A stretch of DNA of 64,000 nt, taken from Haliangiales bacterium. Lineage in GTDB: Bacteria; Myxococcota_A; Polyangia; Haliangiales; Haliangiaceae. Shown piece by piece: positions 9,873 through 59,039 of this stretch (position 1 is its first letter; each line of letters begins with the position of its first letter). The notes below the pieces were generated by a model. The model was not told the origin of the DNA and searched no databases. It saw only the letters and a program-made list of their open reading frames with translations. The stretch spans positions 36,097 through 100,096 of the forward strand of contig JBBQEX010000005.1 in assembly GCA_038321315.1 (NCBI GenBank). Direction: 5' to 3'. The translations under genes and the position numbers were made by a program.

Positions 9873-11084
9873 ATGAAGGGAATGCGCCGCGACCTCGTGG
9901 ACGGATTTCGTGGCCGGTTCGTCGCAGCGAGCGGGCTTGCCCTGGCGGCGATGCTCGTGTGTCGCGCGCCGTCGCCGGCACCGACCCACGTCGCGATCCG
10001 CGTGGCGTGCGCCGGTGACACGTGCGCGCTCGCCGAATCGCTCGCCATCGACGTGTGGAGCGAGGAGCGCGGCCCGACGCTGCCGCTCGACCTCGTCGTG
10101 CCCGACACCGCGCTGGCGACCCTCGCGGCCGCGGGCGTGACGTGGGAGGTGCTCGTGCCGGATGTCGACGCGGTCGCCGAGGCCGAGCACGCGCGCCTGC
10201 AGGTGCCGAACGCCGACTTCTTCGGCGAGTTCCGCGACTACGGCGCGATCACGACGCGACTCCACGAGCTCGCCGAGCAGGCGCCCGATCGGGTCGGCCT
10301 GCAGTCGATCGGAACCTCGCTCCAGGGCCGGCCGATCTGGGCGCTGAAGATCGGGCACGGCGCGACGCCGATGCTGGTCGACGGCACGCAACACGCGCGC
10401 GAGTGGATCGCCGCGATGACGACGACCTGCGTCGCCGATCGCCTGGTGCACGACTACGCGACCGACCCGGCGGTGCGCGCGTTCGTCGATGGCACGACGC
10501 TGTGGATCGTGCCGGTCGACAATCCCGACGGCTACCAGTACTCGTGGAGCGACCGGCGCTACTGGCGCAAGAACCGCCGCGACGGTCACGGCGTCGATCT
10601 CAACCGCAACTTCTCGGTCGCGTGGGGTGGGGCGGGAGCGAGCCGGCGCGAGTCCTCCGAGGTCTATGCCGGCCCGTATGCGTTCTCGGAGCCCGAGTCG
10701 AGCGCGCTGCGAGACCTCGCGAAGCGCGAGCGGTTCGCGCTGCACGTCGACTTCCACGCGTACGGCCAGCTCGTGCTCTACCCGTGGAACCACACCGGCA
10801 CGCCGACCAAGGATCGCGATCGGTTCGCCGGTATCGGCGATCGGATGGCCTCGGCGATCTTCGCGACGCACCAGGTGCGTTACGCGCTGATGCCAGGGAT
10901 CGACCTGTACGCCGCCGCCGGGACGATGACCGACTGGATGTACGGCGAGGCCGGAGCGCTGTCGTACACGATCGAGCTGCGGCCGAAAGGTGGCAGCGGC
11001 TTCGTCCTGCCGCCCGCGCAGATCCGACCGACGTGCGACGAGGGTCTCGCCGCGGTGCTCGCGCTGCGCGCCGGACTCAGATGA
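9873..11084 (+). CDS. Zinc carboxypeptidase, peptidase M14 family, secreted
   Basis: HAREWIA, NPDGY, WRKNR, GVDLNRNF, FHAYGQ and YTIELRP are M14 (carboxypeptidase A-like) signatures. N-terminal signal MKGMRRDLVDGFRGRFVAASGLALAAMLV. Start ATG at 9873, in frame with ORF 9801. Confidence 0.85.
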   Translation: MKGMRRDLVDGFRGRFVAASGLALAAMLVCRAPSPAPTHVAIRVACAGDTCALAESLAIDVWSEERGPTLPLDLVVPDTALATLAAAGVTWEVLVPDVDAVAEAEHARLQVPNADFFGEFRDYGAITTRLHELAEQAPDRVGLQSIGTSLQGRPIWALKIGHGATPMLVDGTQHAREWIAAMTTTCVADRLVHDYATDPAVRAFVDGTTLWIVPVDNPDGYQYSWSDRRYWRKNRRDGHGVDLNRNFSVAWGGAGASRRESSEVYAGPYAFSEPESSALRDLAKRERFALHVDFHAYGQLVLYPWNHTGTPTKDRDRFAGIGDRMASAIFATHQVRYALMPGIDLYAAAGTMTDWMYGEAGALSYTIELRPKGGSGFVLPPAQIRPTCDEGLAAVLALRAGLR

Positions 11085-47898: not shown

Positions 47899-49125
47899 CT
47901 AGCGGTACTGACGCCGGTGATCGGCGACGCCGGCGAATCGCCGCTGACCCGGGAGTGCCGGCTCGTCGATCGGTGAGGACGACGACATCGCCATGATGCG
48001 GTCGTACTCGTCGATCGTGATCCGCGTGCGCGCCGCGAGCTGCGCGCCGATCTCGGCGGTCGCGATCCGCGCCGTCGCGCGCGGCGACACCGTGCCGGAG
48101 AAGAACTCGCTCGTGCAGCCGCTGCCGTACGAGAACATGCCGATGCGCGCGCCCGCGAGGCACGCCGCGTCGGTCTCGAGCAGCCCGGCGAGGCCCATGT
48201 ACAGGGAGCCGGTGTAGACGTTGCCGACGCGCGAGCACACCGAGAGCGACGCCTGCACCTGGTTGGCGAAGCTGGTCTCGCCGCGCATCGCCTCGACCTC
48301 GACATCCCACGGCGTGTTGGCGTCCTCGAGATCGCAGCGACGCAGCTGCGCGTGCGCCTTCTTCGCCATCTTGCAGAACGGCACGTGATAGCAGATGCGT
48401 GCGAGCTGCTCGCTCACCATCGCGCCCGCGCGCATCGTGCCGCGCTCGATCGCGCGTCGCTTCCAGCCTCGGTACGCGACGCTGACGGCCTCGAGGTAGC
48501 ACTGCACCGAGTAGTGGCCGTCGACGCGCGCCTCGCGATCGCCGTGCGGTCGCCAGAAGTCGTGGACGTGCGTGCTCGCCATCCCCGAGATCCCGAGGTC
48601 GAGCTCGACCAGCGCGGGCTGCGCCGAGACGATCATCGCGACCGCGCCGGCGCCCTGGGTCGGCTCGCCTGCGGTGCCGACGCCGTAGCGCGCGATGTCC
48701 GAGCAGATCACGAGCGCGCTGCGATCGCCCGCCGAGCCCGACGCGATCCAGTCGACCGCGGCCATCAGGCCGGCGGTGCCGCCGTAGCACGCGTGCTGGG
48801 TGTCGTAGACGCGCATGTCGCGCGGCAGCTCGAGCAGGCCGTGGACGAACGACGCCACGGGCTTGCTGTGATCGACGCCGGTCTCGGTCCCGACGACGAG
48901 CATGCCGAGCTTGCCGGGATCGACGTTGCCGCCGGACAGCACGCGGCGCGCGGCGGTGGTCGCGAGCGACACGGTGTCCTCGCCGGGCTCGGCGATCGCC
49001 ATCTCCTTCGCGCCGAGTCCGTGAGTGTACTTCGCCGGATCGACGCCGCGCGCGTTGGCGAGGTCGGCGAGGTCGATGTAGCGGCGCGGGATCGCGATCG
49101 CGAGCGCGTCGATCCCGACCCTCAC
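47899..49125 (-). CDS. mvaS: Hydroxymethylglutaryl-CoA synthase
   Basis: MRVGIDALAIAIPRRYIDLADLANARGVDPAKYTHGLGAKEMAI matches the bacterial HMG-CoA synthase N-terminus. The catalytic Cys context ALVICSDIARY is thiolase-fold. Confidence 0.85.
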   Translation of the reverse strand: MRVGIDALAIAIPRRYIDLADLANARGVDPAKYTHGLGAKEMAIAEPGEDTVSLATTAARRVLSGGNVDPGKLGMLVVGTETGVDHSKPVASFVHGLLELPRDMRVYDTQHACYGGTAGLMAAVDWIASGSAGDRSALVICSDIARYGVGTAGEPTQGAGAVAMIVSAQPALVELDLGISGMASTHVHDFWRPHGDREARVDGHYSVQCYLEAVSVAYRGWKRRAIERGTMRAGAMVSEQLARICYHVPFCKMAKKAHAQLRRCDLEDANTPWDVEVEAMRGETSFANQVQASLSVCSRVGNVYTGSLYMGLAGLLETDAACLAGARIGMFSYGSGCTSEFFSGTVSPRATARIATAEIGAQLAARTRITIDEYDRIMAMSSSSPIDEPALPGQRRFAGVADHRRQYR

Positions 49126-49129
49126 GACG

Positions 49130-49717
49130 CTACTCCCGCGGCATCACGCCATCGAAGAACATCGACTCGACGCCCGCCGCGATCTGCTGCGCGTCGAGTG
49201 CGCCGTTCGGCCGGTACCACTTGTACGTCCACAGCACGACGCCGAGAAAGTTGAACGCCGCGATCGTCGGATCGACCGCGCGGATCTGGTTCTGCGCGAT
49301 CGCGTCGCGAAACGACTGCTCGAGGAACCGCACGTAGTTCTTCTTGCGCGCGTTGATCGCCTTCTTCGCCTCGCCGGTCAGCGTCTGATGCTCGTGAAGG
49401 ATGATCGTGACCTCCTTGGACGAGTCGGTCACCAGCTCCATGTTGCGCGCCATCGTCGCGCGCAGCCGCGCCAGCGGATCCGTGATGTGCGAGACCTTGT
49501 CGAGGACGCGCTCCTCGAACAGATCCATGCCGTAGTGCATGATCGCGAGCAGCATCGCTTCCTTGGTGCGGATGTGATGGTAGAGGCCGGCCTTGGTGAG
49601 CTCGCACGCCTCCGCGATCTCCTGCATCGAGGTCGCTTCGTAGCCCTTCTCGCAGATCAGCCGAGCCGCGTGCTCGAGGATCTCGCGATACCGCAGATCG
49701 CTCGGCGCTCGGGTCAT
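49130..49717 (-). CDS. TetR family transcriptional regulator (upstream of mvaS, AibR-like position)
   Basis: YEATSMQEIAEACELTKAGLYHHIRTKEAML is the TetR HTH. Stop is 4 nt before the mvaS start. Confidence 0.85.
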   Translation of the reverse strand: MTRAPSDLRYREILEHAARLICEKGYEATSMQEIAEACELTKAGLYHHIRTKEAMLLAIMHYGMDLFEERVLDKVSHITDPLARLRATMARNMELVTDSSKEVTIILHEHQTLTGEAKKAINARKKNYVRFLEQSFRDAIAQNQIRAVDPTIAAFNFLGVVLWTYKWYRPNGALDAQQIAAGVESMFFDGVMPRE

Positions 49718-49813: not shown

Positions 49814-52030
49814 GTGTCAAGACGCAGGTCAGCTACCGTGGATCGGGTGCGTTGGGTCGTCGCGGTCGTGCTCGTGATCGGTGGAGGATGTCACCGATTT
49901 TTCGGCATCGACTCGCTGCCATTGCCGGACTCATCGTCGCCCGCCGATGGGGATCCGCTGCCCGGCCGCTGGCTCGCGGTGGCGCCGGGCACGTCGCACA
50001 TGTGCGCGATCGATCGCGTCGATCACTCGCTGTGGTGCTGGGGATCGAACGTCCAGGGCGAGGTCGGGACCGGGACGTCGGAGGTCGAGGTCTCCACCCC
50101 GCAGCGCGTCGGCGCCGCGCCGTGGCGCGCGATCGCGAGCGGCCAGGCGTTCTCGTGCGGCATCGAGGACGATGGCTCGCTGTGGTGCTGGGGGCACAAC
50201 ACCGAGGGCGAGCTCGGGATCGGCGGGGTCGATGCCGCGCACACGCCGACGCTCGCGTCCAGCCCCGCGTGGACCTCGGTCGCCGCGACGTCGTACGACG
50301 CGTGCGCGATCCGCGCCGACGGATCGTTGTGGTGCTGGGGCTACAACAACGTCGGTCAGCTCGGCGACGGCACGATCCAGAACCGGGTCTCGCCGGTGCT
50401 GATCGATCCCGGACCGTGGATCTCGATCAGCGCGGGCGCGACGTTCACGTGCGGCGTCAAGCAGGATCACTCGGGGTGGTGCTGGGGCGCCGGCACCTCG
50501 GGGCAGCTCGGGATCCCGTTCTCGTCGCTGCTGACGCCGAGCGCGCCACTCGCCGGCAGCTGGCTGCAGATCGCCGCCGGGATCGACTCGGCGTGCGGCA
50601 TCACGGTCGATCACGCGCTGCGATGCTGGGGCGCGAACCAGTTCGGCGTCGTCGGCGATGGCTCGATGAGCGGGCAGACGCTGCCGGTCGCGGTGCCGGT
50701 CGATGGCGTCGATCGCACCGACTGGAGCGACCTCGCGATCGCCGGGCAACACGCGTGCGCGCTGCGCACCGATCACACGATGTGGTGCTGGGGCGACGAC
50801 CGCCGCGGCGAGCTCGTGCAGACCCTGGCGATCGGCTACGCGCCGACGCCGGTCGCGATCGGCGGCGCCGACTGGCAGGCGATCGCGCTCGGCCCGTCGA
50901 CGACGTGCGCGATCGACGGCGCCCGCGCGCTGTACTGCGCGGGCAACGACAGCGGCTCCGAGCTCGGCGACGGCGGCACGAGCCACCGCGTGCCGACCGC
51001 GGTGCCGCACGCCGCGGCGCAGGTCGTGGCCGGCGGCAACACGACGTGCGTCACCGGCATGGATGGCGTGCTCGCGTGCACGGGCGACAACAGCAGCGGC
51101 GAGCTCGGCGACGGCACGCAGCTGACGACCGGCGGGTTCGCCGTCGTCGGCGCGGGGTACGCCGGCACGGTCGCCGCGGGTTACACGCACACTTGCGCGG
51201 CGAAGACGCTGACCTACTGCTGGGGTGCCAACGGACTCGGCGAGCTCGGCACCGGCACCGCGACGAGCGTCGAGTCCGCGCCGATCAGCGTCGCCGGTGC
51301 GCTGTCGGTGCTCGCCGCCTCGGTGCACACGTGCGGCATCGCGCCGGACACCACACTCTACTGCTGGGGGCCGAACGACTACGGCCAGCTCGCGACCGGC
51401 AACCAGAACCCGGCGCCGACGCCGTTCTCGCTCGGCAGCGGCTGGGTCCGGGTCGGCGTCGGCCGCGATCACACGTGCGGGATCACGACGTCGGGCGCGG
51501 TGTACTGCTGGGGGCGCGGCGCCGAGGGCGAGCTCGGCAGCGTCGCGATGCCGACGCCGTCGACCCAGACCTCGGCGGCCACGGCGGTCGGGATCTCCGC
51601 GGCGTCGCTCGCGCTCGGCGAGTACCACACCTGTGCGCTGTCGGCGGCGAACGACGCGATGTGCTGGGGCTACAACGCCAAGGGGCAGCTCGGGCTCGGC
51701 GATGTCGCGTTGCATCCGTTGCCGGCGCTGCTCCCGAAGAAGTGGACGCAGCTCGCCGCCGGGCTCGCGCATACCTGCGGGATCGAGGCGACGACGCACG
51801 CGCTGTGGTGCTGGGGGGACAACACGCGCGGCCAGCTCGGCGACGGCACGCTGCTCGAGCGCACGATCCCGGTCGCGATCGGCAGCGCGACGTGGAGCGC
51901 GATCACCGCTGGTGGGCAGCACACGTGCGGGCTGCAGACCGACGGCACGCTGTGGTGCTGGGGCAACAACGACTTCGGCCAGCTCGGTACCGGCGACGCG
52001 TGGCTCGCGCACTTCGTGCAGGTGCCGTAG
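49814..52030 (+). CDS. RCC1-repeat beta-propeller protein (about 14 repeats), probable lipoprotein
   Basis: Repeats of (L/M)WCWGxNxxGQLGDG. N-terminal WVVAVVLVIGGGCH. Confidence 0.8.
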   Translation: MSRRRSATVDRVRWVVAVVLVIGGGCHRFFGIDSLPLPDSSSPADGDPLPGRWLAVAPGTSHMCAIDRVDHSLWCWGSNVQGEVGTGTSEVEVSTPQRVGAAPWRAIASGQAFSCGIEDDGSLWCWGHNTEGELGIGGVDAAHTPTLASSPAWTSVAATSYDACAIRADGSLWCWGYNNVGQLGDGTIQNRVSPVLIDPGPWISISAGATFTCGVKQDHSGWCWGAGTSGQLGIPFSSLLTPSAPLAGSWLQIAAGIDSACGITVDHALRCWGANQFGVVGDGSMSGQTLPVAVPVDGVDRTDWSDLAIAGQHACALRTDHTMWCWGDDRRGELVQTLAIGYAPTPVAIGGADWQAIALGPSTTCAIDGARALYCAGNDSGSELGDGGTSHRVPTAVPHAAAQVVAGGNTTCVTGMDGVLACTGDNSSGELGDGTQLTTGGFAVVGAGYAGTVAAGYTHTCAAKTLTYCWGANGLGELGTGTATSVESAPISVAGALSVLAASVHTCGIAPDTTLYCWGPNDYGQLATGNQNPAPTPFSLGSGWVRVGVGRDHTCGITTSGAVYCWGRGAEGELGSVAMPTPSTQTSAATAVGISAASLALGEYHTCALSAANDAMCWGYNAKGQLGLGDVALHPLPALLPKKWTQLAAGLAHTCGIEATTHALWCWGDNTRGQLGDGTLLERTIPVAIGSATWSAITAGGQHTCGLQTDGTLWCWGNNDFGQLGTGDAWLAHFVQVP

Positions 52031-54631
52031 TCACTGCACGAGGCGCGGCGTCGACCGAGACTTCGTGCGCGCCTGATCGGTCGCGAGCGCCGGCAGGCCG
52101 AGCATCGCGCGCAGCGAGCCGGCGATCTCGACGATCGCGTCGTGCGACGTGCGGCTGATGCTCGTCATGTTCGCGAACCCGTGGATCAGCGTCTCGAAGC
52201 GACGGACGATCGCCGGCGAGCCGTTCGCGCGCAGCTGCGCGGCGTAGGCTTCGCCCTCGTCGCGCAGCGGATCGAAGCCCGCGGTGACCACGAGCGCGGG
52301 CGCCTGACCGGCCAGGTTCTTGCCATTGATCGCGCGGACGCGCGGATCGTCGGGCGACTCGCCCGAGGTCTCGATGTACTGCTCGTGGAACCAGGTCGTC
52401 GCCTCGCGCGTCAGCACGAAGCCATCGCCGAACAGGTGCTTCGACGGGTAGTCGCCCGCGCGATCGACCGTGGGATAGATCAACACCTGGCAGGTCGGCG
52501 CCTCGGGCGTGCGCGCGGTGGTCTGCGCGACGACCGTCGCGAGGTTGCCGCCGGCGCTGTCGCCGCACACGGCGATGCGCGTGGCATCGGCGCCGAGCGC
52601 GCTCGCGTGCACGCGGGCCCAGCGATACGCGTGCAGCGTGTCGTCGACCGCGGCCGGGAACGGATGCTCGGGCGCGAGCCGGTACTCGATCGCGAGCACG
52701 TGGACGCCGGCGTGACGACACAGCATGCGGCACAGCTGATCGTGGGTCTCGACATCGCCGAACACGAAGCCGCCGCCGTGGAAGAACACGACGAGCGGTG
52801 CGCGCTGGCTGGTCGGCGGCGCGTAGTGGCGGGCGCGCAGCGCGGGTGACTTCGCGCCTGCCGGGATCGTGAGATCGGCGACCGCGCCGACCTCGACCGG
52901 CGTGCCGTTGATCATCTTCGCGACGCGGCGCTGGCGGATCCGCAGCGCGCCGGGCTCGGCGCCGATGATCTCGTCGTCCTTCGTCATCGCGGCGATCACG
53001 AGCTGCATCTCGGTCGCGAGGGTCTGGCCGTCGACGACGACCGGCGGCTTGCGGAGGAGCGCGCGCTGCACGCGGTCGGGCAGCTTGGCGATCGCGCGAG
53101 CGAGCGAGCCCTTGACGCGCTCGCCACGGGTCAGCACGATCGGCTGGCGGGCGGCGGCGGTCATCGCGTACTCGGCGGGGCGGAACTTCTCGACCTTGCG
53201 CTTGAACGTGAACGTGAAGCCCGGCCACAGCGTCGAGTTGCGGCCGCTCTGATCGAGGTACCAGCTGTCGCAGCCGCCGGAGGTCCACACCGTGCCCTCG
53301 GTGCGCTTCTCGACGTCGGCGACGAACGCCGCCTGCGCCGCGGGCGTCGGCTCGACCGCGCCGATCGCGTGGGTCTTCATGTGGCGGAGCGCACCGAGCA
53401 GGTGCTCGATCTGGCTCTCGATCATCAGGATCACCGAGCTGTGGCCGAGGCCGGTGTTCGGGCCCTGCAAGATGAACAGGTTCGGGAACCCGCTGATCGT
53501 CGTGCCGAGGTGCGCGACCATCTTGCCGTTCCACACCGCGTCGAGCGTCTTGCCCTCGCGACCGCGGATGGCGCGCGCGAATGGGTAGTCCTGCACGTGG
53601 AACCCGGTGCCGAAGATGATCGTGTCGACCGCGTGGGTGCGGCCGTCCTCGGTGACGATGCCGGTCGGGACGACCTCGCGGATCGAGTCCGTGATCACGT
53701 CGACGTTGGGCTTCGCGAGCGCCGGCAGGTAGTTGTCGCTGATGAGGACGCGCTTGCAGCCGAGCGCGTAGCTCGGCGTCAGCTTCGCGCGCAGGACCGG
53801 GTCCTCGACGGTGTCCTCGAGGTAGCGCATCGCGTACCGCTGGGCGAGCTTGCCGACGCGCTTGTCGAGGAACGCGAGCGCCGACGCCTCGCGGTACGCG
53901 AAGATGCCGGCGCGGACCGCGCGCTGCGCGAGCGGCGAGGCGCGCAGGAGCTCCTTCCGGCGCTCCGACAGCGCGCGATCGTTGCGCGGCAGGACCCACG
54001 GCGGCGTGCGCTGGAACAGCGCGAGCGACCCGACCGTGGGCTGGATCGCGGGGACGAACTGGATCGCCGACGCGCCGGTGCCGACGACGGCGACCGCCTT
54101 GCCGGCGAGCTCGACGTCGTGGTTCCAGCGCGCCGAGTGGAACGTCTTGCCGGCGAACGTCGCGAGGCCGGGGAGCGCGGGGAGCTTGGGCTCGCTGAGC
54201 GCACCGACCGCGGCGACCAGCACGTCGGCGGTGAACTCGCCGCGCGAGGTGCCGAGGCGCCAGCGCTGGACGTCGGCGTCCCACGCGACCTCGGTGATCG
54301 CGTGCCCGAGCCGGAGGTGCGGCGCGAGCCCGAACCGCGCCGCGCAGTCGCGCAGGTACTGGAGGATCTCGGCCTGCGGCGAGTACGCGCGCGACCAGCT
54401 GGGGTTCCGTGCGAACGAGAACGAGTACAGGTGCGACTCGACATCGCACGCGCAGCCCGGATACGAGTTGTCGCGCCACACGCCGCCGAGCTGCTCGGCG
54501 CGCTCGAACACCAGGAAGTCGCGCTCGCCTTCCTGGGTGAGCCGGATCGCGGTGCCGAGGCCGCCGAACCCCGAGCCGACGATCGCGACGCGGGTGTGAC
54601 GAGCCGCCGAGGTCGGAGTGAGCTCTCCCAT
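52031..54631 (-). CDS. Fusion protein: type I Baeyer-Villiger flavin monooxygenase (N-terminal) plus alpha/beta-hydrolase esterase of the HSL/LipR family (C-terminal)
   Basis: N-terminal domain has GSGFGG (FAD), the BVMO fingerprint FAGKTFHSARW, and GTGASA (NADPH). C-terminal domain has VVFFHGGGFVFGD (HGGG oxyanion) and GDSAGGNLA (GDSAG nucleophile elbow). A single 866-aa ORF. Confidence 0.85.
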   Translation of the reverse strand: MGELTPTSAARHTRVAIVGSGFGGLGTAIRLTQEGERDFLVFERAEQLGGVWRDNSYPGCACDVESHLYSFSFARNPSWSRAYSPQAEILQYLRDCAARFGLAPHLRLGHAITEVAWDADVQRWRLGTSRGEFTADVLVAAVGALSEPKLPALPGLATFAGKTFHSARWNHDVELAGKAVAVVGTGASAIQFVPAIQPTVGSLALFQRTPPWVLPRNDRALSERRKELLRASPLAQRAVRAGIFAYREASALAFLDKRVGKLAQRYAMRYLEDTVEDPVLRAKLTPSYALGCKRVLISDNYLPALAKPNVDVITDSIREVVPTGIVTEDGRTHAVDTIIFGTGFHVQDYPFARAIRGREGKTLDAVWNGKMVAHLGTTISGFPNLFILQGPNTGLGHSSVILMIESQIEHLLGALRHMKTHAIGAVEPTPAAQAAFVADVEKRTEGTVWTSGGCDSWYLDQSGRNSTLWPGFTFTFKRKVEKFRPAEYAMTAAARQPIVLTRGERVKGSLARAIAKLPDRVQRALLRKPPVVVDGQTLATEMQLVIAAMTKDDEIIGAEPGALRIRQRRVAKMINGTPVEVGAVADLTIPAGAKSPALRARHYAPPTSQRAPLVVFFHGGGFVFGDVETHDQLCRMLCRHAGVHVLAIEYRLAPEHPFPAAVDDTLHAYRWARVHASALGADATRIAVCGDSAGGNLATVVAQTTARTPEAPTCQVLIYPTVDRAGDYPSKHLFGDGFVLTREATTWFHEQYIETSGESPDDPRVRAINGKNLAGQAPALVVTAGFDPLRDEGEAYAAQLRANGSPAIVRRFETLIHGFANMTSISRTSHDAIVEIAGSLRAMLGLPALATDQARTKSRSTPRLVQ

Positions 54632-54649
54632 GAACGCCAGCGTAGGTTG

Positions 54650-55732
54650 CTATTGAACAGTGGTCAATAGTGAACGTCGATGTCCTTGGTTTGGCAGGGA
54701 GAATCGTGCGATCTGCCGGGCGACCGAGCCGAGCTGCTTGGCGAACGAGCCGGTGTTGTACGACTGGCCGTAGCGCTCGCAGATCGCGCGCACCGCCGGC
54801 GCCATCTCGGGATAGCGCGCGGCCGGGATGTCGGGGAACAGGTGGTGCTCGATCTGGTGCGACAGGTGGCCCGACGCGACGTGGAACGCGCGCCCGCCCT
54901 CGATGTTCGCCGAGCCATTGAGCTGGCGCAGGTACCACTCGCCGCGGGTCTCGCCGTCGAGGTCCGTGCGGAACACCGAGACGCCCTCGGGGAAGTGGCC
55001 GCAGAAGATGATCGCGAACGACCACACGTTGCGCATCGCGTTCGCGAGCAGGTTGCCGACCAGGACGCGCGGCGCGTTCAGCCCGGCGAGCAGCGGATAC
55101 GCGACGTAGTCGCGTCCGAACTGCCACGCGGCCTTCTTGAGGAAGCCCGAGGCGCGCGCGCGGAGCTCGGCGAACGACTGCTTGCCGGCGGCGCTCTCGG
55201 CGAGCCGCAGATCGTGCAGCCCGACGCCGTACTGGAACAACAGCGCGAGCAGCGCGGCCGAGACCGGCTGGAACAGGTGGTGCGGCTGCCAGCGCTGCTC
55301 GCCCGAGACCCGCAGAAACTGGTAGCCGATGTCGCGGTCCTTGCCGAGCACGTTGGTGAACGTGTGGTGCTCGTAGTTGTGCGAGTGGCGCCAGTCGTCG
55401 CCGGTGCACGAGGTGTCCCACTCGTAGTGCTTGCCGTCGAGCGCGGGATCGCCGGCCCAGTCGTACTGGCCGTGCATCACGTTGTGCCCGACCTCCATGT
55501 TCTCGAGGATCTTCGATAGCCCGAGCGCGCTCGTGCCGACGAGGAACGACAGCGGTCCGAAGCCGAAGTGGAGCAGGGCGCGACCGGCGACCTCGGTGTA
55601 GCCGACCAGCCGGATCATCTTGCGGATGTGATCGACATCGCGCTGGCCGAGGTCGGCGAGCGTGCGGGTGCGGAGCGCATCGAGCTCCGCGCCGAAGGCG
55701 GCGGTCTCGGCGGGCGTGAGGGTGCGAGTCAT
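54650..55732 (-). CDS. Membrane fatty-acyl desaturase (DesA3/stearoyl-CoA desaturase-like)
   Basis: Three His boxes: HNVMHGQY, HSHNYEHH, HQIEHHLFP. Confidence 0.85.
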   Translation of the reverse strand: MTRTLTPAETAAFGAELDALRTRTLADLGQRDVDHIRKMIRLVGYTEVAGRALLHFGFGPLSFLVGTSALGLSKILENMEVGHNVMHGQYDWAGDPALDGKHYEWDTSCTGDDWRHSHNYEHHTFTNVLGKDRDIGYQFLRVSGEQRWQPHHLFQPVSAALLALLFQYGVGLHDLRLAESAAGKQSFAELRARASGFLKKAAWQFGRDYVAYPLLAGLNAPRVLVGNLLANAMRNVWSFAIIFCGHFPEGVSVFRTDLDGETRGEWYLRQLNGSANIEGGRAFHVASGHLSHQIEHHLFPDIPAARYPEMAPAVRAICERYGQSYNTGSFAKQLGSVARQIARFSLPNQGHRRSLLTTVQ

Positions 55733-55745
55733 GAGTCAGGTCCTT

Positions 55746-56771
55746 TCAGAGTGCGAGTTCGAGATCGCCGCGCGCGACGGACGTGCACAGCCGGATCTCC
55801 TGGTCGGGTTCGGTCGACAGCGCGCCGGTCGCGAGATCCTCGACGACCCCGGAGCGCTTGGTGCAGCGGCACGTGTTGCAGATGCCCATGCGACAGCCGT
55901 GCGCGGGGCGCTCGCCAGCGCGCTCGAGCTGCTCGAGCAGCGTCCCGCTGCCGTCGATCGCGACCGTGCGATCGGCGATCGCGAGATGCACGCGAGCCGG
56001 CGCGTTCGCGGACCTCGTCGCCGGGATCGCGGCGACGAAGCGCTCGCGATGGATCGGCTTGCCCGCCGCCGCAGCGACGAGGTCCATGAGTGGTGCGGGG
56101 CCACACGTGTAGACCTCGCGGGTCGCGAGATCCGGCACGCGCGCCACGAGGTCGGCCGCGGTCAGGTGCGCGCCGGCGTGGACGACGACGCGCAGGCCGG
56201 GAAGGTCGACCGCGTGATGGTGGAACTCGTCGACGAACGCAGCCCGATCCTCGCGGACGGCGTAGACCACGACGACGTCGGTCAGCTCGGCGCGATCGAC
56301 GAGGTCGCGCAGCATGCCGAGGATCGGCGTGATGCCGCTGCCGCCGGCGACGAGCGCGAGCCGCGCGGGCACGCGCTCGGGCAGCACGAAGTCGCCGGCC
56401 GGATCGCCGAGCGTGACGATCGTGCCGCGCCGCACGTGATCGTGCAGGAAGCCAGAGACCCGGCCGCCCGGCACGCGCTTGACGGTGATCGCGACGCGCC
56501 TGCGATCGCCGGGCAACGACGTGATCGAGTAGCAGCGGCGGACGCGCTTGCCGGCGATCTCGAGGTCGACCGGCACGTACTGGCCGGCGGTGTGGCCGGG
56601 CCAGCGCGAGGGCGCGAGCACGAACGTCTTGGTGTCGGTGGACTCGTCGATGATGTCGACGACGCGGGCCCGGCGCTCGCGCAGCGACCACGTGGGCCGC
56701 AGCTCGCCGAGCAGGAAGTTGGCGTGGCGGTCGAGATACAGACGCCGCCAGGCTGTGGAGAGGAGCAGCAT
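55746..56771 (-). CDS. Ferredoxin-NAD(P)H reductase-like oxidoreductase with C-terminal 2Fe-2S ferredoxin domain (desaturase electron donor)
   Basis: RCYSITS FAD-binding motif, GGSGITP NAD-binding motif, and CRMGICNTCRC 2Fe-2S cluster. This is the same arrangement as the Rv3230c partner of DesA3. Confidence 0.85.
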   Translation of the reverse strand: MLLLSTAWRRLYLDRHANFLLGELRPTWSLRERRARVVDIIDESTDTKTFVLAPSRWPGHTAGQYVPVDLEIAGKRVRRCYSITSLPGDRRRVAITVKRVPGGRVSGFLHDHVRRGTIVTLGDPAGDFVLPERVPARLALVAGGSGITPILGMLRDLVDRAELTDVVVVYAVREDRAAFVDEFHHHAVDLPGLRVVVHAGAHLTAADLVARVPDLATREVYTCGPAPLMDLVAAAAGKPIHRERFVAAIPATRSANAPARVHLAIADRTVAIDGSGTLLEQLERAGERPAHGCRMGICNTCRCTKRSGVVEDLATGALSTEPDQEIRLCTSVARGDLELAL

Positions 56772-56877
56772 TTCGGACTCCTTGTTACCTACGCATCCGT
56801 AACCTACGGTCGCGTAGGTAAGATGTCAACGAGTTTTCGACTGCGGACCTCCGTACGCGTAGTAAGAAGCGAGAATC

Positions 56878-57495
56878 ATGTCGTCCAGAACGCGTCTCAC
56901 CGCGAGCGCACGCCGGGCCCAGCTGGTCGAGGTCGGACGCGGCGTGTTCGCCAAGCACGGCTACGAAGGGACCTCGGTGGAGGAGATCGCGGACCGCGCG
57001 CACGTCTCGAAGCCCGTGGTCTACGAGCACTTCGGCGGCAAGGAAGGGCTCTACGCGGTCATCGTCGATCGCGAGATGGAGTACGTCGTGCGCCGGATCT
57101 CCGAGTCGATCTCGTCGGGCACGCCGCGCCAGCGCGTCGAGCAGGCCGCGCTCGCGTTCCTGACCTACGTGAAGGATCACCCCGACGGCTTCGCGATCCT
57201 CGCGCACGACACGCCGCTCGCCTCGAAGGAGGCCGGCATGACGTCGCTGCTCGCCGACATCGCGGTCCGCGTCGGCGACGTGTTCGCGGCGTCGTTCAAG
57301 GCGGCGGGCTACGACCCCCGCGCCGCGCCGATCTACGCGCACGCGCTGATCGGGATGGTCACGTTCGTCGGGCGCTGGTGGACGGAGACGCGCAAGCCGC
57401 ACGTCGAGGAGGTCGCGGTCCACATCGCCGCGCTCGCGTGGATGGGCCTGCGGCACCTGCCGAAGCGGCCGCGGTCGTCGCGCGCGTCGTCGTGA
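56878..57495 (+). CDS. TetR family transcriptional regulator, divergent from the desaturase operon
   Basis: YEGTSVEEIADRAHVSKPVVYEHFGGKEGLY is the TetR HTH. Confidence 0.85.
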   Translation: MSSRTRLTASARRAQLVEVGRGVFAKHGYEGTSVEEIADRAHVSKPVVYEHFGGKEGLYAVIVDREMEYVVRRISESISSGTPRQRVEQAALAFLTYVKDHPDGFAILAHDTPLASKEAGMTSLLADIAVRVGDVFAASFKAAGYDPRAAPIYAHALIGMVTFVGRWWTETRKPHVEEVAVHIAALAWMGLRHLPKRPRSSRASS

Positions 57496-59039
57496 TCGCG
57501 CTCGCGCCACCGTTCGAGCTGCCGGCGCGCGTGCCGAGCCCGTTCGCGCTCCCACCGCATCCGATCGCGGTGCGCGCGGCCGAGGCGCTGCGCGCGACGC
57601 TCGGGTCGCGCACCGAGGGCAAGATGTTCGGCGTGCTCGTCGTGCGCGACGGCGATCGCGTCGGTTACCTGTGCGCGTTCTCCGGCATGCTCGACGGCGC
57701 GTGGGACATCCCCGGCTTCGTCGGCCCGGTGTTCGATGCCGTGGCCCGGGATGCGTTCTGGCCGGCCGGCGAGGCCGACCTCGCGGCGATCGATCGCGCC
57801 CTCGACGCCGCGCGGATCGCTGCCGCCGGTCCGCGGGACGCGCTCGCCGCGTTCGACCGCGAGCACGCCACCGCGCTCGACGCGCTGCGCGCCCACCACG
57901 TCGCGAATCGCGCGGCCCGCCACGCGGCGCGCGCGATCGGCGGCGAGGGCCACGCGCTCGATCAGGCGAGCCGCGCCGACACCGCCGAGCGCCGCCGCTT
58001 CGACACGAGCCGATCGGACGCGCGTGCGCCGCTGGTCGCCGCGCTCCGCGACGGCGAGGTCGCGGCGCTCGAGGCGCGACGCACCGACGCCTCGCGAGGC
58101 TACCTGCAGCAGATCTTCGCGACCTACCGGTTCGCCGACGCGCGCGGCGCGGTTCGCGAGCTCGCCTCGCTGTTCGCGCCCGACGCGCCGCCGGGTGGCG
58201 CCGGCGACTGCGCGGCACCCAAGCTGTTCGCGCACGCCTATCGCCAAGGGCTCGTGCCGATCGCGCTCGCCGAGTTCTGGCACGGCCCGCCGCCGCCGAC
58301 CGGCGATCGCCGGCACGGCGTGTACTACCCGGCATGCCGCAGCAAGTGCGGCCCGATCCTGGCGCACGTGCTCGGCGGCCTCGAGGTCGATCCGGCGCCG
58401 GTGTTCGGTGGCGGTGCGATCGATCCGGCCGCGCCGCGCACGCTGTTCGAGGACGCGTGGCTCGCCGTCGTCGACAAGCCGGTCGGCCTGCTCTCGGTCC
58501 CGGGCCGCAGCGGCCAGCTGCGCGACTCGGTGGCGACGCGGCTGCGCGCGCGCTGGCCCGGCGCCGAGGTCGTCCACCGGCTCGACCTCGACACGTCCGG
58601 CGTGATGCTGGTCGCCAAGGATGCCGCGACGTTCGTCGCGCTGCAGCGGATGTTCGCGCGTCGCGAGATCGCCAAGCGCTACGTCGCGATCCTCGATGGC
58701 GACGTGGCCGGCGACCGCGGCACGATCGAGCTCGCGCTGCGCGTCGATGTCGACGATCGACCGCGCCAGATCGTCGATCCGCTGCACGGCAAGGCCGCGG
58801 TCACCGACTGGGAGGTCGTCGCGCGCGGCGGCGGTCGCACGCGCGTCGTGTTCGTGCCGCACACCGGCCGCACGCACCAGCTGCGCGTCCACGCCGCGGT
58901 CGGGCTCGGCGCGCCGATCGCGGGCGACCGGCTGTACGGCCGCGACGGCGAGCGCCTCCTCCTGCACGCCGAGCGGCTCGAGCTCGTGCACCCGCACACG
59001 GGCGCGCCGATCGTCGTCGAGCTACGCGCCGGCTTCTGA
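57492..59039 (+). CDS. RluA-family pseudouridine synthase with N-terminal extension domain
   Basis: GTG overlaps the TetR stop (GTGA). The C-terminus has VVHRLDLDTSGVMLVAKD, the RluA catalytic Asp motif. Confidence 0.7.
   Translation: MIALAPPFELPARVPSPFALPPHPIAVRAAEALRATLGSRTEGKMFGVLVVRDGDRVGYLCAFSGMLDGAWDIPGFVGPVFDAVARDAFWPAGEADLAAIDRALDAARIAAAGPRDALAAFDREHATALDALRAHHVANRAARHAARAIGGEGHALDQASRADTAERRRFDTSRSDARAPLVAALRDGEVAALEARRTDASRGYLQQIFATYRFADARGAVRELASLFAPDAPPGGAGDCAAPKLFAHAYRQGLVPIALAEFWHGPPPPTGDRRHGVYYPACRSKCGPILAHVLGGLEVDPAPVFGGGAIDPAAPRTLFEDAWLAVVDKPVGLLSVPGRSGQLRDSVATRLRARWPGAEVVHRLDLDTSGVMLVAKDAATFVALQRMFARREIAKRYVAILDGDVAGDRGTIELALRVDVDDRPRQIVDPLHGKAAVTDWEVVARGGGRTRVVFVPHTGRTHQLRVHAAVGLGAPIAGDRLYGRDGERLLLHAERLELVHPHTGAPIVVELRAGF

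Follow-up and report, generated by a model that had tools for sequence, protein, structure and literature searches.

A single 866-aa open reading frame (ORF) in the 64-kb stretch of DNA that we analyzed (hereafter, the window) is, by the evidence of its sequence, a true natural fusion, end to end, of a Baeyer–Villiger monooxygenase (BVMO) and an HSL-family esterase. It adjoins a reductase–desaturase gene pair with a divergent TetR-family regulator, and we consider it likely that these are two independent units side by side: a BVMO–esterase fusion produced by gene merger and a self-contained desaturase module. The juxtaposition of fusion and desaturase is lineage-specific, occurring in this genome alone among the loci compared, and is not a conserved pathway. 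All four ORFs lie where they were originally predicted, with gaps between the three co-oriented genes of 18 and 13 nt rather than the 19 and 14 bp first given.

A BVMO and an esterase in one polypeptide

The fused gene and its two domains map as follows.

52031–54631 (−): BVMO–esterase fusion ORF, 866 aa, no internal stops
53147–54631 (−): BVMO domain, residues 1 to ~495 (Pfam, solved-structure match, Foldseek and alignment with stand-alone BVMOs)
52031–53122 (−): HSL-family esterase domain, residues ~504–866, stop codon counted (Pfam, PDB and alignment)

Pfam assigns FMO-like/Pyr_redox_3 to the N terminus and Abhydrolase_3 to residues 614–820 (6.6e-69; 232 bits, with a cut-off of 25), which places both domains on one polypeptide, as the original prediction had it. 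The N-terminal half is a type I BVMO of the short, ~500-aa kind; its best matches among solved structures are cyclohexanone monooxygenases (6er9, E = 7e-75, residues 15–459), and its fold gives Foldseek TM scores of 0.80 to 4rg3/4aox and 0.78–0.82 (target-normalised) to CHMO, STMO, PAMO and OTEMO. The C-terminal half is a family IV, GDSAG carboxylesterase with its own N-terminal cap helices and best matches HSL-type esterases of solved structure (Est8, 4ypv, E = 4e-65, residues 563–843). None of the four proteins passes an NCBIfam equivalog cut-off: LipP1 is the best model for the esterase (304.6 bits, below the cut-off of 350), the chloramphenicol hydrolase and Aes models score far under theirs, and the fusion also draws weak matches to ArsO and trimethylamine monooxygenase.

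Alignment with separately encoded relatives sets the domain junction at residues ~495–504 (nt ~53122–53147) and not at nt 53300–53500, where it had been proposed to lie. The same comparison with unfused relatives indicates that the esterase's own N-terminal cap makes up the junction, with no added linker. The AlphaFold model of the whole protein (pLDDT 89.7, pTM 0.79) is well ordered across this region, with pLDDT values of 82–95 for residues 490–550. GC3 is 0.92–0.96 in all four ORFs and 0.96 over the entire fusion ORF, as expected for real genes in ~71% GC DNA.

We judged motif conservation on 56 fused sequences (this one and those of 55 other 90%-identity clusters), across which all catalytic motifs are invariant. 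In the BVMO half, these include the glycines of the two Rossmann GxGxxG/A motifs (GSGFGG, residues 19–24, and GTGASA, residues 184–189) and the F, H and W of the fingerprint FAGKTFHSARW at residues 159–169 (F159-x-G161-xxx-H165-xxx-W169), in line with the FxGxxxHxxxW assignment made originally. The residue that follows the fingerprint Trp is Asn here and Asp in 45 of the 56 homologues. A second BVMO motif, GGVWRDNSYPGCACD at residues 49–63, fits the consensus [A/G]GxWxxxx[F/Y]P[G/M]xxxD, and its G49-G50-V-W52...Y57-P58-G59...D63 positions do not vary; the same is true of the active-site pair K293-R294, whose counterpart in the alignment with cyclohexanone monooxygenase 6er9 is KR. The esterase half carries HGGG (618–621), GDSAG (690–694), DPLRDE (787–792) and HGF (817–819), with H618-G-G-G621, G690-D-S692-A-G694, D787 and H817 invariant. 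On this comparison of sequences, both halves of the fusion are under selection.

These residues suggest a reaction sequence in which NADPH would reduce FAD, and O2 would then give the C4a-peroxyflavin. This species would attack a ketone, with Arg294 stabilising the Criegee intermediate, and the resulting ester would be hydrolysed to acid and alcohol by the Ser692/Asp787/His817 triad with HGGG as the oxyanion hole. The ketone in question is probably an open-chain aliphatic one.

Relatives and origin of the fusion

At least 55 further clusters at 90% identity, drawn from independent assemblies, show the same continuous architecture, which answers the count of homologues that the original prediction had proposed. 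The closest sequence found is at most 68% identical to the 866-aa protein, and the best matches come from Kofleriaceae, Polyangia and Myxococcales metagenome-assembled genomes (MAGs). Against metagenome contigs, the BVMO domain finds distant relatives only (30–46% identity), with one partial match at 71%. Complete plasmids of Burkholderia glumae carry a BVMO–esterase fusion in RefSeq (WP_012732758.1, 821 aa). The rarity that was first implied is overstated: such fusions are common in databases and are mentioned by Aalbers & Fraaije 2018 (PMC6563810), who cite van Beilen et al. 2003 (Environ Microbiol 5:174) for them. As a kind, the fusion is not new, being already recorded in databases and reviews.

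The closest unfused BVMOs (P0056, P0066 and P0115) are 65–66% identical to the BVMO domain, and each lies in a BVMO–Abhydrolase_3–adh_short operon with a divergent TetR. The BVMOs of these operons align to fusion residues 12 to ~496, and the separately encoded esterases of loci L125–L127 align to residues 504/511–846/863 with 51–53% identity. ORFs in the unfused operons overlap by 8 nt (BVMO/esterase) and by 4 nt. The Rosetta-stone logic of the original prediction is borne out here, in that downstream of each of the closest unfused BVMOs come a separate orthologous esterase and then an SDR. We propose that the fusion arose by merger of two adjacent genes overlapping by 8 nt, whose parents would have belonged to a widespread TetR-regulated BVMO–esterase–SDR operon oxidising secondary alcohols and ketones.

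The SDR gene is kept directly downstream of the fused homologues P0032 and P0038. Other arrangements occur among the relatives, including an esterase–BVMO fusion in reverse order and, each as one natural polypeptide, BVMO–SDR (P0265) and SDR–BVMO–esterase (P0257). Across these pairings and fusions, the BVMO is partnered with two different alpha/beta-hydrolase families, in either order. A further relative from the BVMO subfamily, P0250, is fused to a CDP-alcohol phosphatidyltransferase (CDP-OH_P_transf), which hints that some members of the subfamily act on lipids. Targeted tblastn indicates that the esterase domain was secondarily lost in one syntenic pair. We did not accept a single origin of the fusion, in view of this loss and because fused and solo BVMOs interleave in our neighbor-joining tree of fusion and fission history, which is rough and carries no support values.

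Two readings of the fused protein other than a ketone-to-acid enzyme need to be weighed. Since the two ORFs of the unfused relatives share no more than 8 nt, a one-base error could mimic a fusion, but an assembly or sequencing artefact, in the form of a missed stop or frameshift between overlapping genes, is extremely unlikely because the same architecture recurs in the 55 other clusters from independent assemblies, complete B. glumae plasmids included; the GC3 of 0.96 along the ORF and the conserved, confidently modeled junction argue in the same direction. It is also quite improbable that the N-terminal domain oxygenates heteroatoms (S/N) in vivo, as EthA and the FMOs do, with the esterase acting on an unrelated substrate or activating a pro-substrate. 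The Pfam FMO-like match and the weak ArsO and trimethylamine-monooxygenase matches are consistent with such a role, and the short BVMOs EthA and MymA activate thioamides by S-oxidation according to the title of Grant et al. 2016, a paper cited in PMC5700317; however, neither the two BVMO-specific motifs nor the active-site Arg varies, and recurrent pairing or fusion with esterases of two families in either order, together with an SDR, best fits a ketone-to-ester-to-hydrolysis sequence. We retain the BVMO–esterase assignment.

An adjoining acyl-CoA desaturase module

The genes next to the fusion, and the sites between them, are as follows.

54632–54649 (−): intergenic gap from desaturase stop to fusion start, 18 nt (sequence)
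54650–55732 (−): DesA3-like membrane acyl-CoA desaturase, 360 aa (Pfam FA_desaturase; three His boxes)
55746–56771 (−): Rv3230c-like reductase (Pfam FAD_binding_6, NAD_binding_1 and C-terminal Fer2)
56785–56821 (no strand): putative TetR operator, 37-bp palindrome (inverted repeat I1, 88% complementary)
56878–57495 (+): divergent TetR-family regulator (Pfam TetR_N and TetR_C_32)

The desaturase has the His boxes HNVMH, HSHNYEHH and HQIEHH. Its homologues at 67–77% identity are named by their sources as acyl-CoA desaturase or NADPH-dependent stearoyl-CoA 9-desaturase, its mycobacterial homologues are 53–58% identical, and no solved structure similar to it by sequence was found. The mycobacterial analogies and high GC pointed to an actinobacterial origin, which was rejected on the grounds that the best matches of the desaturase, like those of the fusion, are Kofleriaceae, Polyangia and Myxococcales MAGs. 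The reductase combines FNR-type FAD/NAD(P)H domains with a plant-type 2Fe-2S ferredoxin domain and lies 13 nt upstream of the desaturase. In 76 of 80 related loci, including those of many Mycobacterium species, a reductase gene immediately precedes that of the desaturase, which upholds the proposed likeness of this pair to the mycobacterial arrangement.

The TetR gene is divergent from these genes, as had been noted. The best NCBIfam model for its product is FasR (118 bits, under the cut-off of 330), and its closest matches of solved structure are 6o6p/6o6n (E = 1e-27, residues 5–196), which bear a generic name in the PDB and which we take to be FasR; the predicted protein is FasR-like over its whole length. 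Orthologues with 74–76% identity are divergent from reductase–desaturase pairs in loci L007–L009, as are TetR_C_32 regulators in L089 and L091. The putative operator consists of 17-nt arms around a 3-nt spacer and is closely preceded by a TTGACA −35-like hexamer of the reductase promoter. Its pattern, AACCTAC...CGTAAGTTACG...CGTAGGTT, is kept in the same place in all five of these loci (L007, L008, L009, L089 and L091). Together, the FasR/DesT-like TetR, the putative operator, the reductase and the desaturase would constitute a self-contained and widely conserved module for aerobic acyl-CoA desaturation.

Comparable systems are DesA3/Rv3230c, the two-protein acyl-CoA desaturase of Mycobacterium tuberculosis, and desT-desCB of Pseudomonas aeruginosa. 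The resemblance lies in a reductase gene directly upstream of a three-His-box desaturase and in a divergent TetR with a palindromic putative operator over the promoter; the difference is the extra gene, the fusion, that follows the desaturase in this window only.

Adjacency of the fusion and the desaturase

The original prediction joined all four genes in a module for desaturation followed by ketone cleavage, which the comparison of loci does not support. The fusion lies downstream of the desaturase in none of 80 related desaturase loci, the closest of which end with a convergent unrelated gene, and no desaturase, reductase or copy of this TetR occurs near fused homologues in any of five contexts; the TetR, operator, reductase and desaturase are conserved together as a separate unit. 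Fusion and desaturase are side by side in this genome only, so their proximity does not argue for a shared pathway. Targeted tblastn found no SDR homologue in the 64-kb window, and the TetRs near the fusion are unrelated to BVMO-associated TetRs beyond the HTH region. In this genome, the fusion gene lacks its usual SDR and TetR partners.

The 18-nt gap before the fusion has no obvious Shine–Dalgarno sequence and holds a 9-mer, AACCTACGC (54640–54648), that resembles an operator half-site. The window contains two copies of this pattern where 0.14 would be expected, with the other copy in the operator, and its significance is uncertain because it was picked after the sequence had been seen. A scan of 51.5–57.6 kb for sigma-70 promoters and intrinsic terminators found nothing and is uninformative at 71% GC. 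The short gap, the shared strand and the lack of a terminator-like site make co-transcription with the desaturase, and hence acyl-CoA-type TetR control, most likely, probably with read-through into the fusion gene from the desaturase promoter. Co-transcription under such a regulator leaves room for a local functional link between fusion and desaturase.

A stronger form of that link would be one lipid-remodelling pathway that comprises the TetR, the reductase, the desaturase and the BVMO–esterase, in which an acyl chain is desaturated, converted to a ketone and cut. We regard this as unlikely. The common strand with gaps of 13 and 18 nt, the absence of a detected terminator in that low-information scan, the operator-like 9-mer ahead of the fusion and the CDP-OH_P_transf–BVMO fusion among relatives are all compatible with it, as is the mycobacterial precedent for BVMO and esterase chemistry on long-chain keto-lipids, namely the passage from keto-mycolates to wax-ester mycolates. 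Yet the adjacency is unique to this window; a desaturase yields an alkene rather than a ketone, and neither the gene cluster nor the DNA around it in the window encodes a hydratase or alcohol dehydrogenase that could lead from one to the other. Moreover, orthologues that share 67–77% identity with the desaturase function with no BVMO. There is a small chance that the BVMO–esterase has been captured by an acyl-CoA-sensing desaturase regulon and acts on a membrane-lipid-derived ketone or oxo-acyl chain. Such capture would proceed by co-transcription from the TetR-controlled promoter, perhaps aided by the operator-like half-site in the gap, and it would make desaturation and oxidative chain cleavage one regulated membrane-remodelling response. 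We favor two independent units, of which the fusion is a real but ordinary addition to the known BVMO–esterase fusions in a lineage-specific position.

Discussion

The fusions mentioned in PMC6563810 embody the same idea as the protein described here, a BVMO joined to an esterase able to hydrolyse its lactone or ester product; this protein differs from other recorded fusions in that no sequence found shares more than 68% identity with it and in that it resides in a Myxococcota-like genome. The literature we searched, in which van Beilen et al. 2003 was represented through the citing review, yielded no biochemical study of a natural BVMO–esterase fusion. Engineered BVMO fusions and ADH–BVMO–esterase cascades (PMC6563810) follow the same logic, from alcohol to ketone to ester to acid plus alcohol, whereas the natural proteins are joined without an added linker. 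Natural linker-free BVMO–esterase and SDR–BVMO–esterase proteins could serve as ready-made cascade biocatalysts. For annotation, our analysis counsels caution, in that 18-nt spacing alone does not define a pathway: two conserved modules merely adjoin here.

The parallel first drawn with the mymA operon of M. tuberculosis holds, in that the unfused relatives share the gene order mymA–lipR–Rv3085, which are contiguous in that species (PMC5700317). The operon encodes a BVMO (Rv3083, mymA), an HSL esterase (Rv3084, lipR) and an SDR (Rv3085), the same activities in the same order as in L125–L127, and it resembles the fusion in pairing a ~500-aa BVMO with a GDSAG-type esterase. In our window, by contrast, BVMO and esterase form a single gene, with the SDR missing. 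A mymA-type BVMO–esterase–SDR operon with a dedicated divergent regulator is present in L125–L127 and absent from the window; the regulator of the M. tuberculosis operon is presumably the AraC-type VirS and not a TetR. The fusion provides clear evidence, by comparison, of a working partnership between this BVMO subfamily and an HSL esterase, usually joined by an SDR, and it supports a ketone-to-ester-to-hydrolysis reading of mymA–lipR-type operons.

A single reading frame joins a BVMO to an esterase

The originally predicted Baeyer–Villiger monooxygenase (BVMO)–esterase fusion, accompanied by a desaturase, a reductase and a divergent TetR regulator, is borne out by an uninterrupted ORF, Pfam assignments, structure matches and motifs. 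Coding-type codon bias in this ~71% GC region is limited to the four ORFs of that prediction (GC3 of 0.92–0.96). The features of the locus are:

47899–49717 (−): HMG-CoA synthase with a second TetR (TetR_C_24) directly upstream
49814–52030 (+): RCC1-repeat protein, 738 aa, convergent with the fusion
52031–54631 (−): BVMO–esterase fusion, 866 residues, translation uninterrupted
54640–54648 (−): 9-mer AACCTACGC, right before the fusion ATG
54650–55732 (−): desaturase (FA_desaturase, three His boxes)
55746–56771 (−): FNR-type reductase, 2Fe–2S domain at the C-terminus
56785–56821: 37-bp palindrome, putative TetR operator, directly past a TTGACA hexamer in the TetR–reductase intergenic region
56878–57495 (+): TetR regulator, divergent from the reductase
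~57500–59039 (+): RluA-type pseudouridine synthase (motifs HRLDLDTSG and HQLRVH; ~300-aa N-terminal extension)

The fusion begins with FMO-like, Pyr_redox_3 and NAD_binding_8 domains, and residues 614–820 form an Abhydrolase_3 domain (E 6.6e-69). Cyclohexanone monooxygenases are the solved structures that resemble residues 15–459 (E 7e-75); for residues 563–843 they are HSL-type esterases, Est8 among them (E 4e-65). Both motif sets are complete: GSGFGG, GGVWRDNSYPGCACD, FAGKTFHSARW, GTGASA and K293–R294 in the BVMO part, and HGGG, GDSAG, D787 and H817 in the esterase part. An alignment of 56 fused sequences shows no variation at any catalytic or cofactor-binding position in either domain. The AlphaFold2 model generated from this alignment is confident over its entire length (pLDDT 89.7, pTM 0.79), with a pLDDT of 82–95 at the junction (residues 490–550). 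Its N-terminal half resembles CHMO, STMO and PAMO (TM ~0.8), and a structure search with the model found no solved chain spanning both halves.

Among 5.8 billion clustered proteins searched, at least 55 further 90%-identity clusters have both domains (827–889 aa; 47–68% identity to our fusion at 93–99% query coverage), with source names including Kofleriaceae, Polyangia, Myxococcales and Rubrivirga. Complete RefSeq plasmids of Burkholderia glumae, many in number, encode an 821-aa BVMO–alpha/beta-hydrolase fusion (WP_012732758.1; for example, NZ_CP100304.1, 38648–41113) in an operon that runs aldehyde dehydrogenase–GMC oxidoreductase–fusion, with a divergent AraC regulator. Because fused clusters recur with invariant residues, the junction is confidently modeled and the B. 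glumae plasmids encode a fusion, the reading frame is very unlikely to be an artefact.

Fusions probably derive from a conserved operon, and the fused state is labile

Unfused BVMOs of ~510 aa share 63–68% identity with our BVMO domain and are as close to it as most fused ones. We examined the neighborhoods of three, all on long contigs (P0056, P0066 and P0115), and found the same operon in each: a divergent TetR, the BVMO, an Abhydrolase_3 esterase and an SDR, with an additional aldehyde dehydrogenase in one of the three. At the BVMO stop and esterase start, the two genes share 8 nt, and the SDR and esterase overlap by 4 nt; one indel close to the BVMO/esterase overlap is enough to merge both genes. 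Because the separate BVMOs align with fusion residues 12–~496 and the separate esterases with residues 504/511–846/863 (51–53% identity), the apparent linker is an N-terminal cap belonging to the esterase itself. An SDR also lies directly 3′ of the fused gene in two more distant Rubrivirga homologs (P0032 and P0038).

In an exhaustive 50%-identity representative library, relatives of our BVMO take further forms: esterase–BVMO in reverse order (P0244), BVMO–Abhydrolase_1/6 (P0259, P0262 and P0282), Abhydrolase_1–BVMO (P0266), BVMO–SDR (P0265), an 1114-aa SDR–BVMO–esterase triple fusion (P0257) and CDP-alcohol phosphatidyltransferase–BVMO (P0250). In a rough neighbor-joining tree, fused and solo BVMOs are intermingled. 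Two syntenic Kofleriaceae loci with 80% DNA identity differ in the same respect: one has a fused gene (L003, 8001–10568), and in the other the BVMO is solo and 58 aa remain from the esterase C-terminus (L129, 4632–6534), which indicates secondary loss of the esterase domain. The tree and this pair indicate that the fused state is labile over evolution. At the closest fused homolog (P0002, 68% identity; L005/L006), the next gene is a convergent second FMO-like/Pyr_redox_3 gene (10505–11965, −) with 27% identity to the BVMO domain; beyond it lies a gene of the enoyl-CoA hydratase family.

The unfused operons and the recurrent, varied fusions uphold the original Rosetta-stone argument for BVMO/esterase coupling. 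They point to a classical alcohol-to-acid route, in which the SDR would convert a secondary alcohol to a ketone, the BVMO the ketone to an ester and the esterase the ester to acid and alcohol. The gene order of the unfused operons is identical to that of mymA–lipR–Rv3085, genes described as contiguous in Mycobacterium tuberculosis (PMC5700317).

The desaturase operon is a separate module

The reductase–desaturase gap is 13 nt and the TetR–reductase intergenic region 106 nt. Desaturase homologs at 67–77% identity are very numerous, with source names such as acyl-CoA desaturase, linoleoyl-CoA desaturase and NADPH-dependent stearoyl-CoA 9-desaturase. With each species represented by one genome, a scan yielded 80 desaturase loci (53–68% identity) in Myxococcota, Mycobacterium, Amycolatopsis, Solirubrobacterales and gamma/beta-proteobacteria. 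By tblastn, 76 of these loci have the reductase immediately 5′ of the desaturase, and the three closest have a divergent TetR (74–76% identity). At the two loci whose desaturases are most similar to ours (77% and 75% identity), the order is TetR↔reductase–desaturase, then an unrelated convergent gene. The palindrome pattern recurs at the matching position in five related loci. The TetR is FasR-like (FasR is the top NCBIfam model, at a score under its cut-off), with 6o6p/6o6n as top PDB matches (E 1e-27). Given this recurrence, TetR–reductase–desaturase is a complete, conserved module, akin to Rv3230c–desA3 and Pseudomonas aeruginosa desT–desCB.

The fusion and the coupling of its halves stand, and the four-gene pathway of desaturation and ketone cleavage originally proposed does not. 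By tblastn, no BVMO–esterase lies 3′ of the desaturase at any of the 80 loci; four have a BVMO or esterase match within 8 kb, none adjoining. Conversely, no desaturase, reductase or TetR like ours occurs within 8–10 kb of five fused homologs (P0002, P0004, P0005, P0032 and P0038). No homolog of the operon SDR is present in the 64-kb window, and no gene near the fusion encodes an enzyme for converting an alkene to a ketone. From these comparisons, we conclude that the arrangement is probably a lineage-specific juxtaposition. The two TetRs of the window resemble BVMO-associated TetRs in the HTH region only.

The flanking genes are unrelated (RCC1-repeat protein, TetR and HMG-CoA synthase, cyclases, peptidases and pseudouridine synthase). 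The RCC1-repeat stop codon abuts that of the fusion with 0 nt between the genes, and the 3′ end of the TetR gene touches or overlaps the start of the pseudouridine synthase gene; a wrong-frame ORF there (57671–59104) has no Pfam domains. The TetR_C_24–HMG-CoA synthase pair is reminiscent of the myxobacterial aibR/mvaS isovaleryl-CoA shunt.

The fusion is likely co-transcribed with the desaturase, because the gap is 18 nt, a scan around both genes found no terminator-like site and the gap holds no clear Shine–Dalgarno sequence. The 9-mer in this gap is identical to a TetR-operator half-site; the half-site pattern, picked post hoc from the sequence, occurs twice in the window, where 0.14 occurrences would be expected. 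Together with likely co-transcription, this operator-like element leaves room for a local regulatory link, which may exist.

Significance

Natural BVMO–esterase fusions are already mentioned in a 2018 review (Aalbers & Fraaije, PMC6563810), citing van Beilen et al. 2003. Many proteins with this architecture occur in databases, annotated RefSeq entries included, so its kind is already known; a literature search of incomplete coverage found no paper characterizing such a fusion. What is new is the position of our fusion 3′ of a desaturase operon, although as a pathway this is unsupported. These natural linker-free cascade enzymes, the triple fusion included, are uncharacterized candidates for biocatalysis, and their value is mainly practical.
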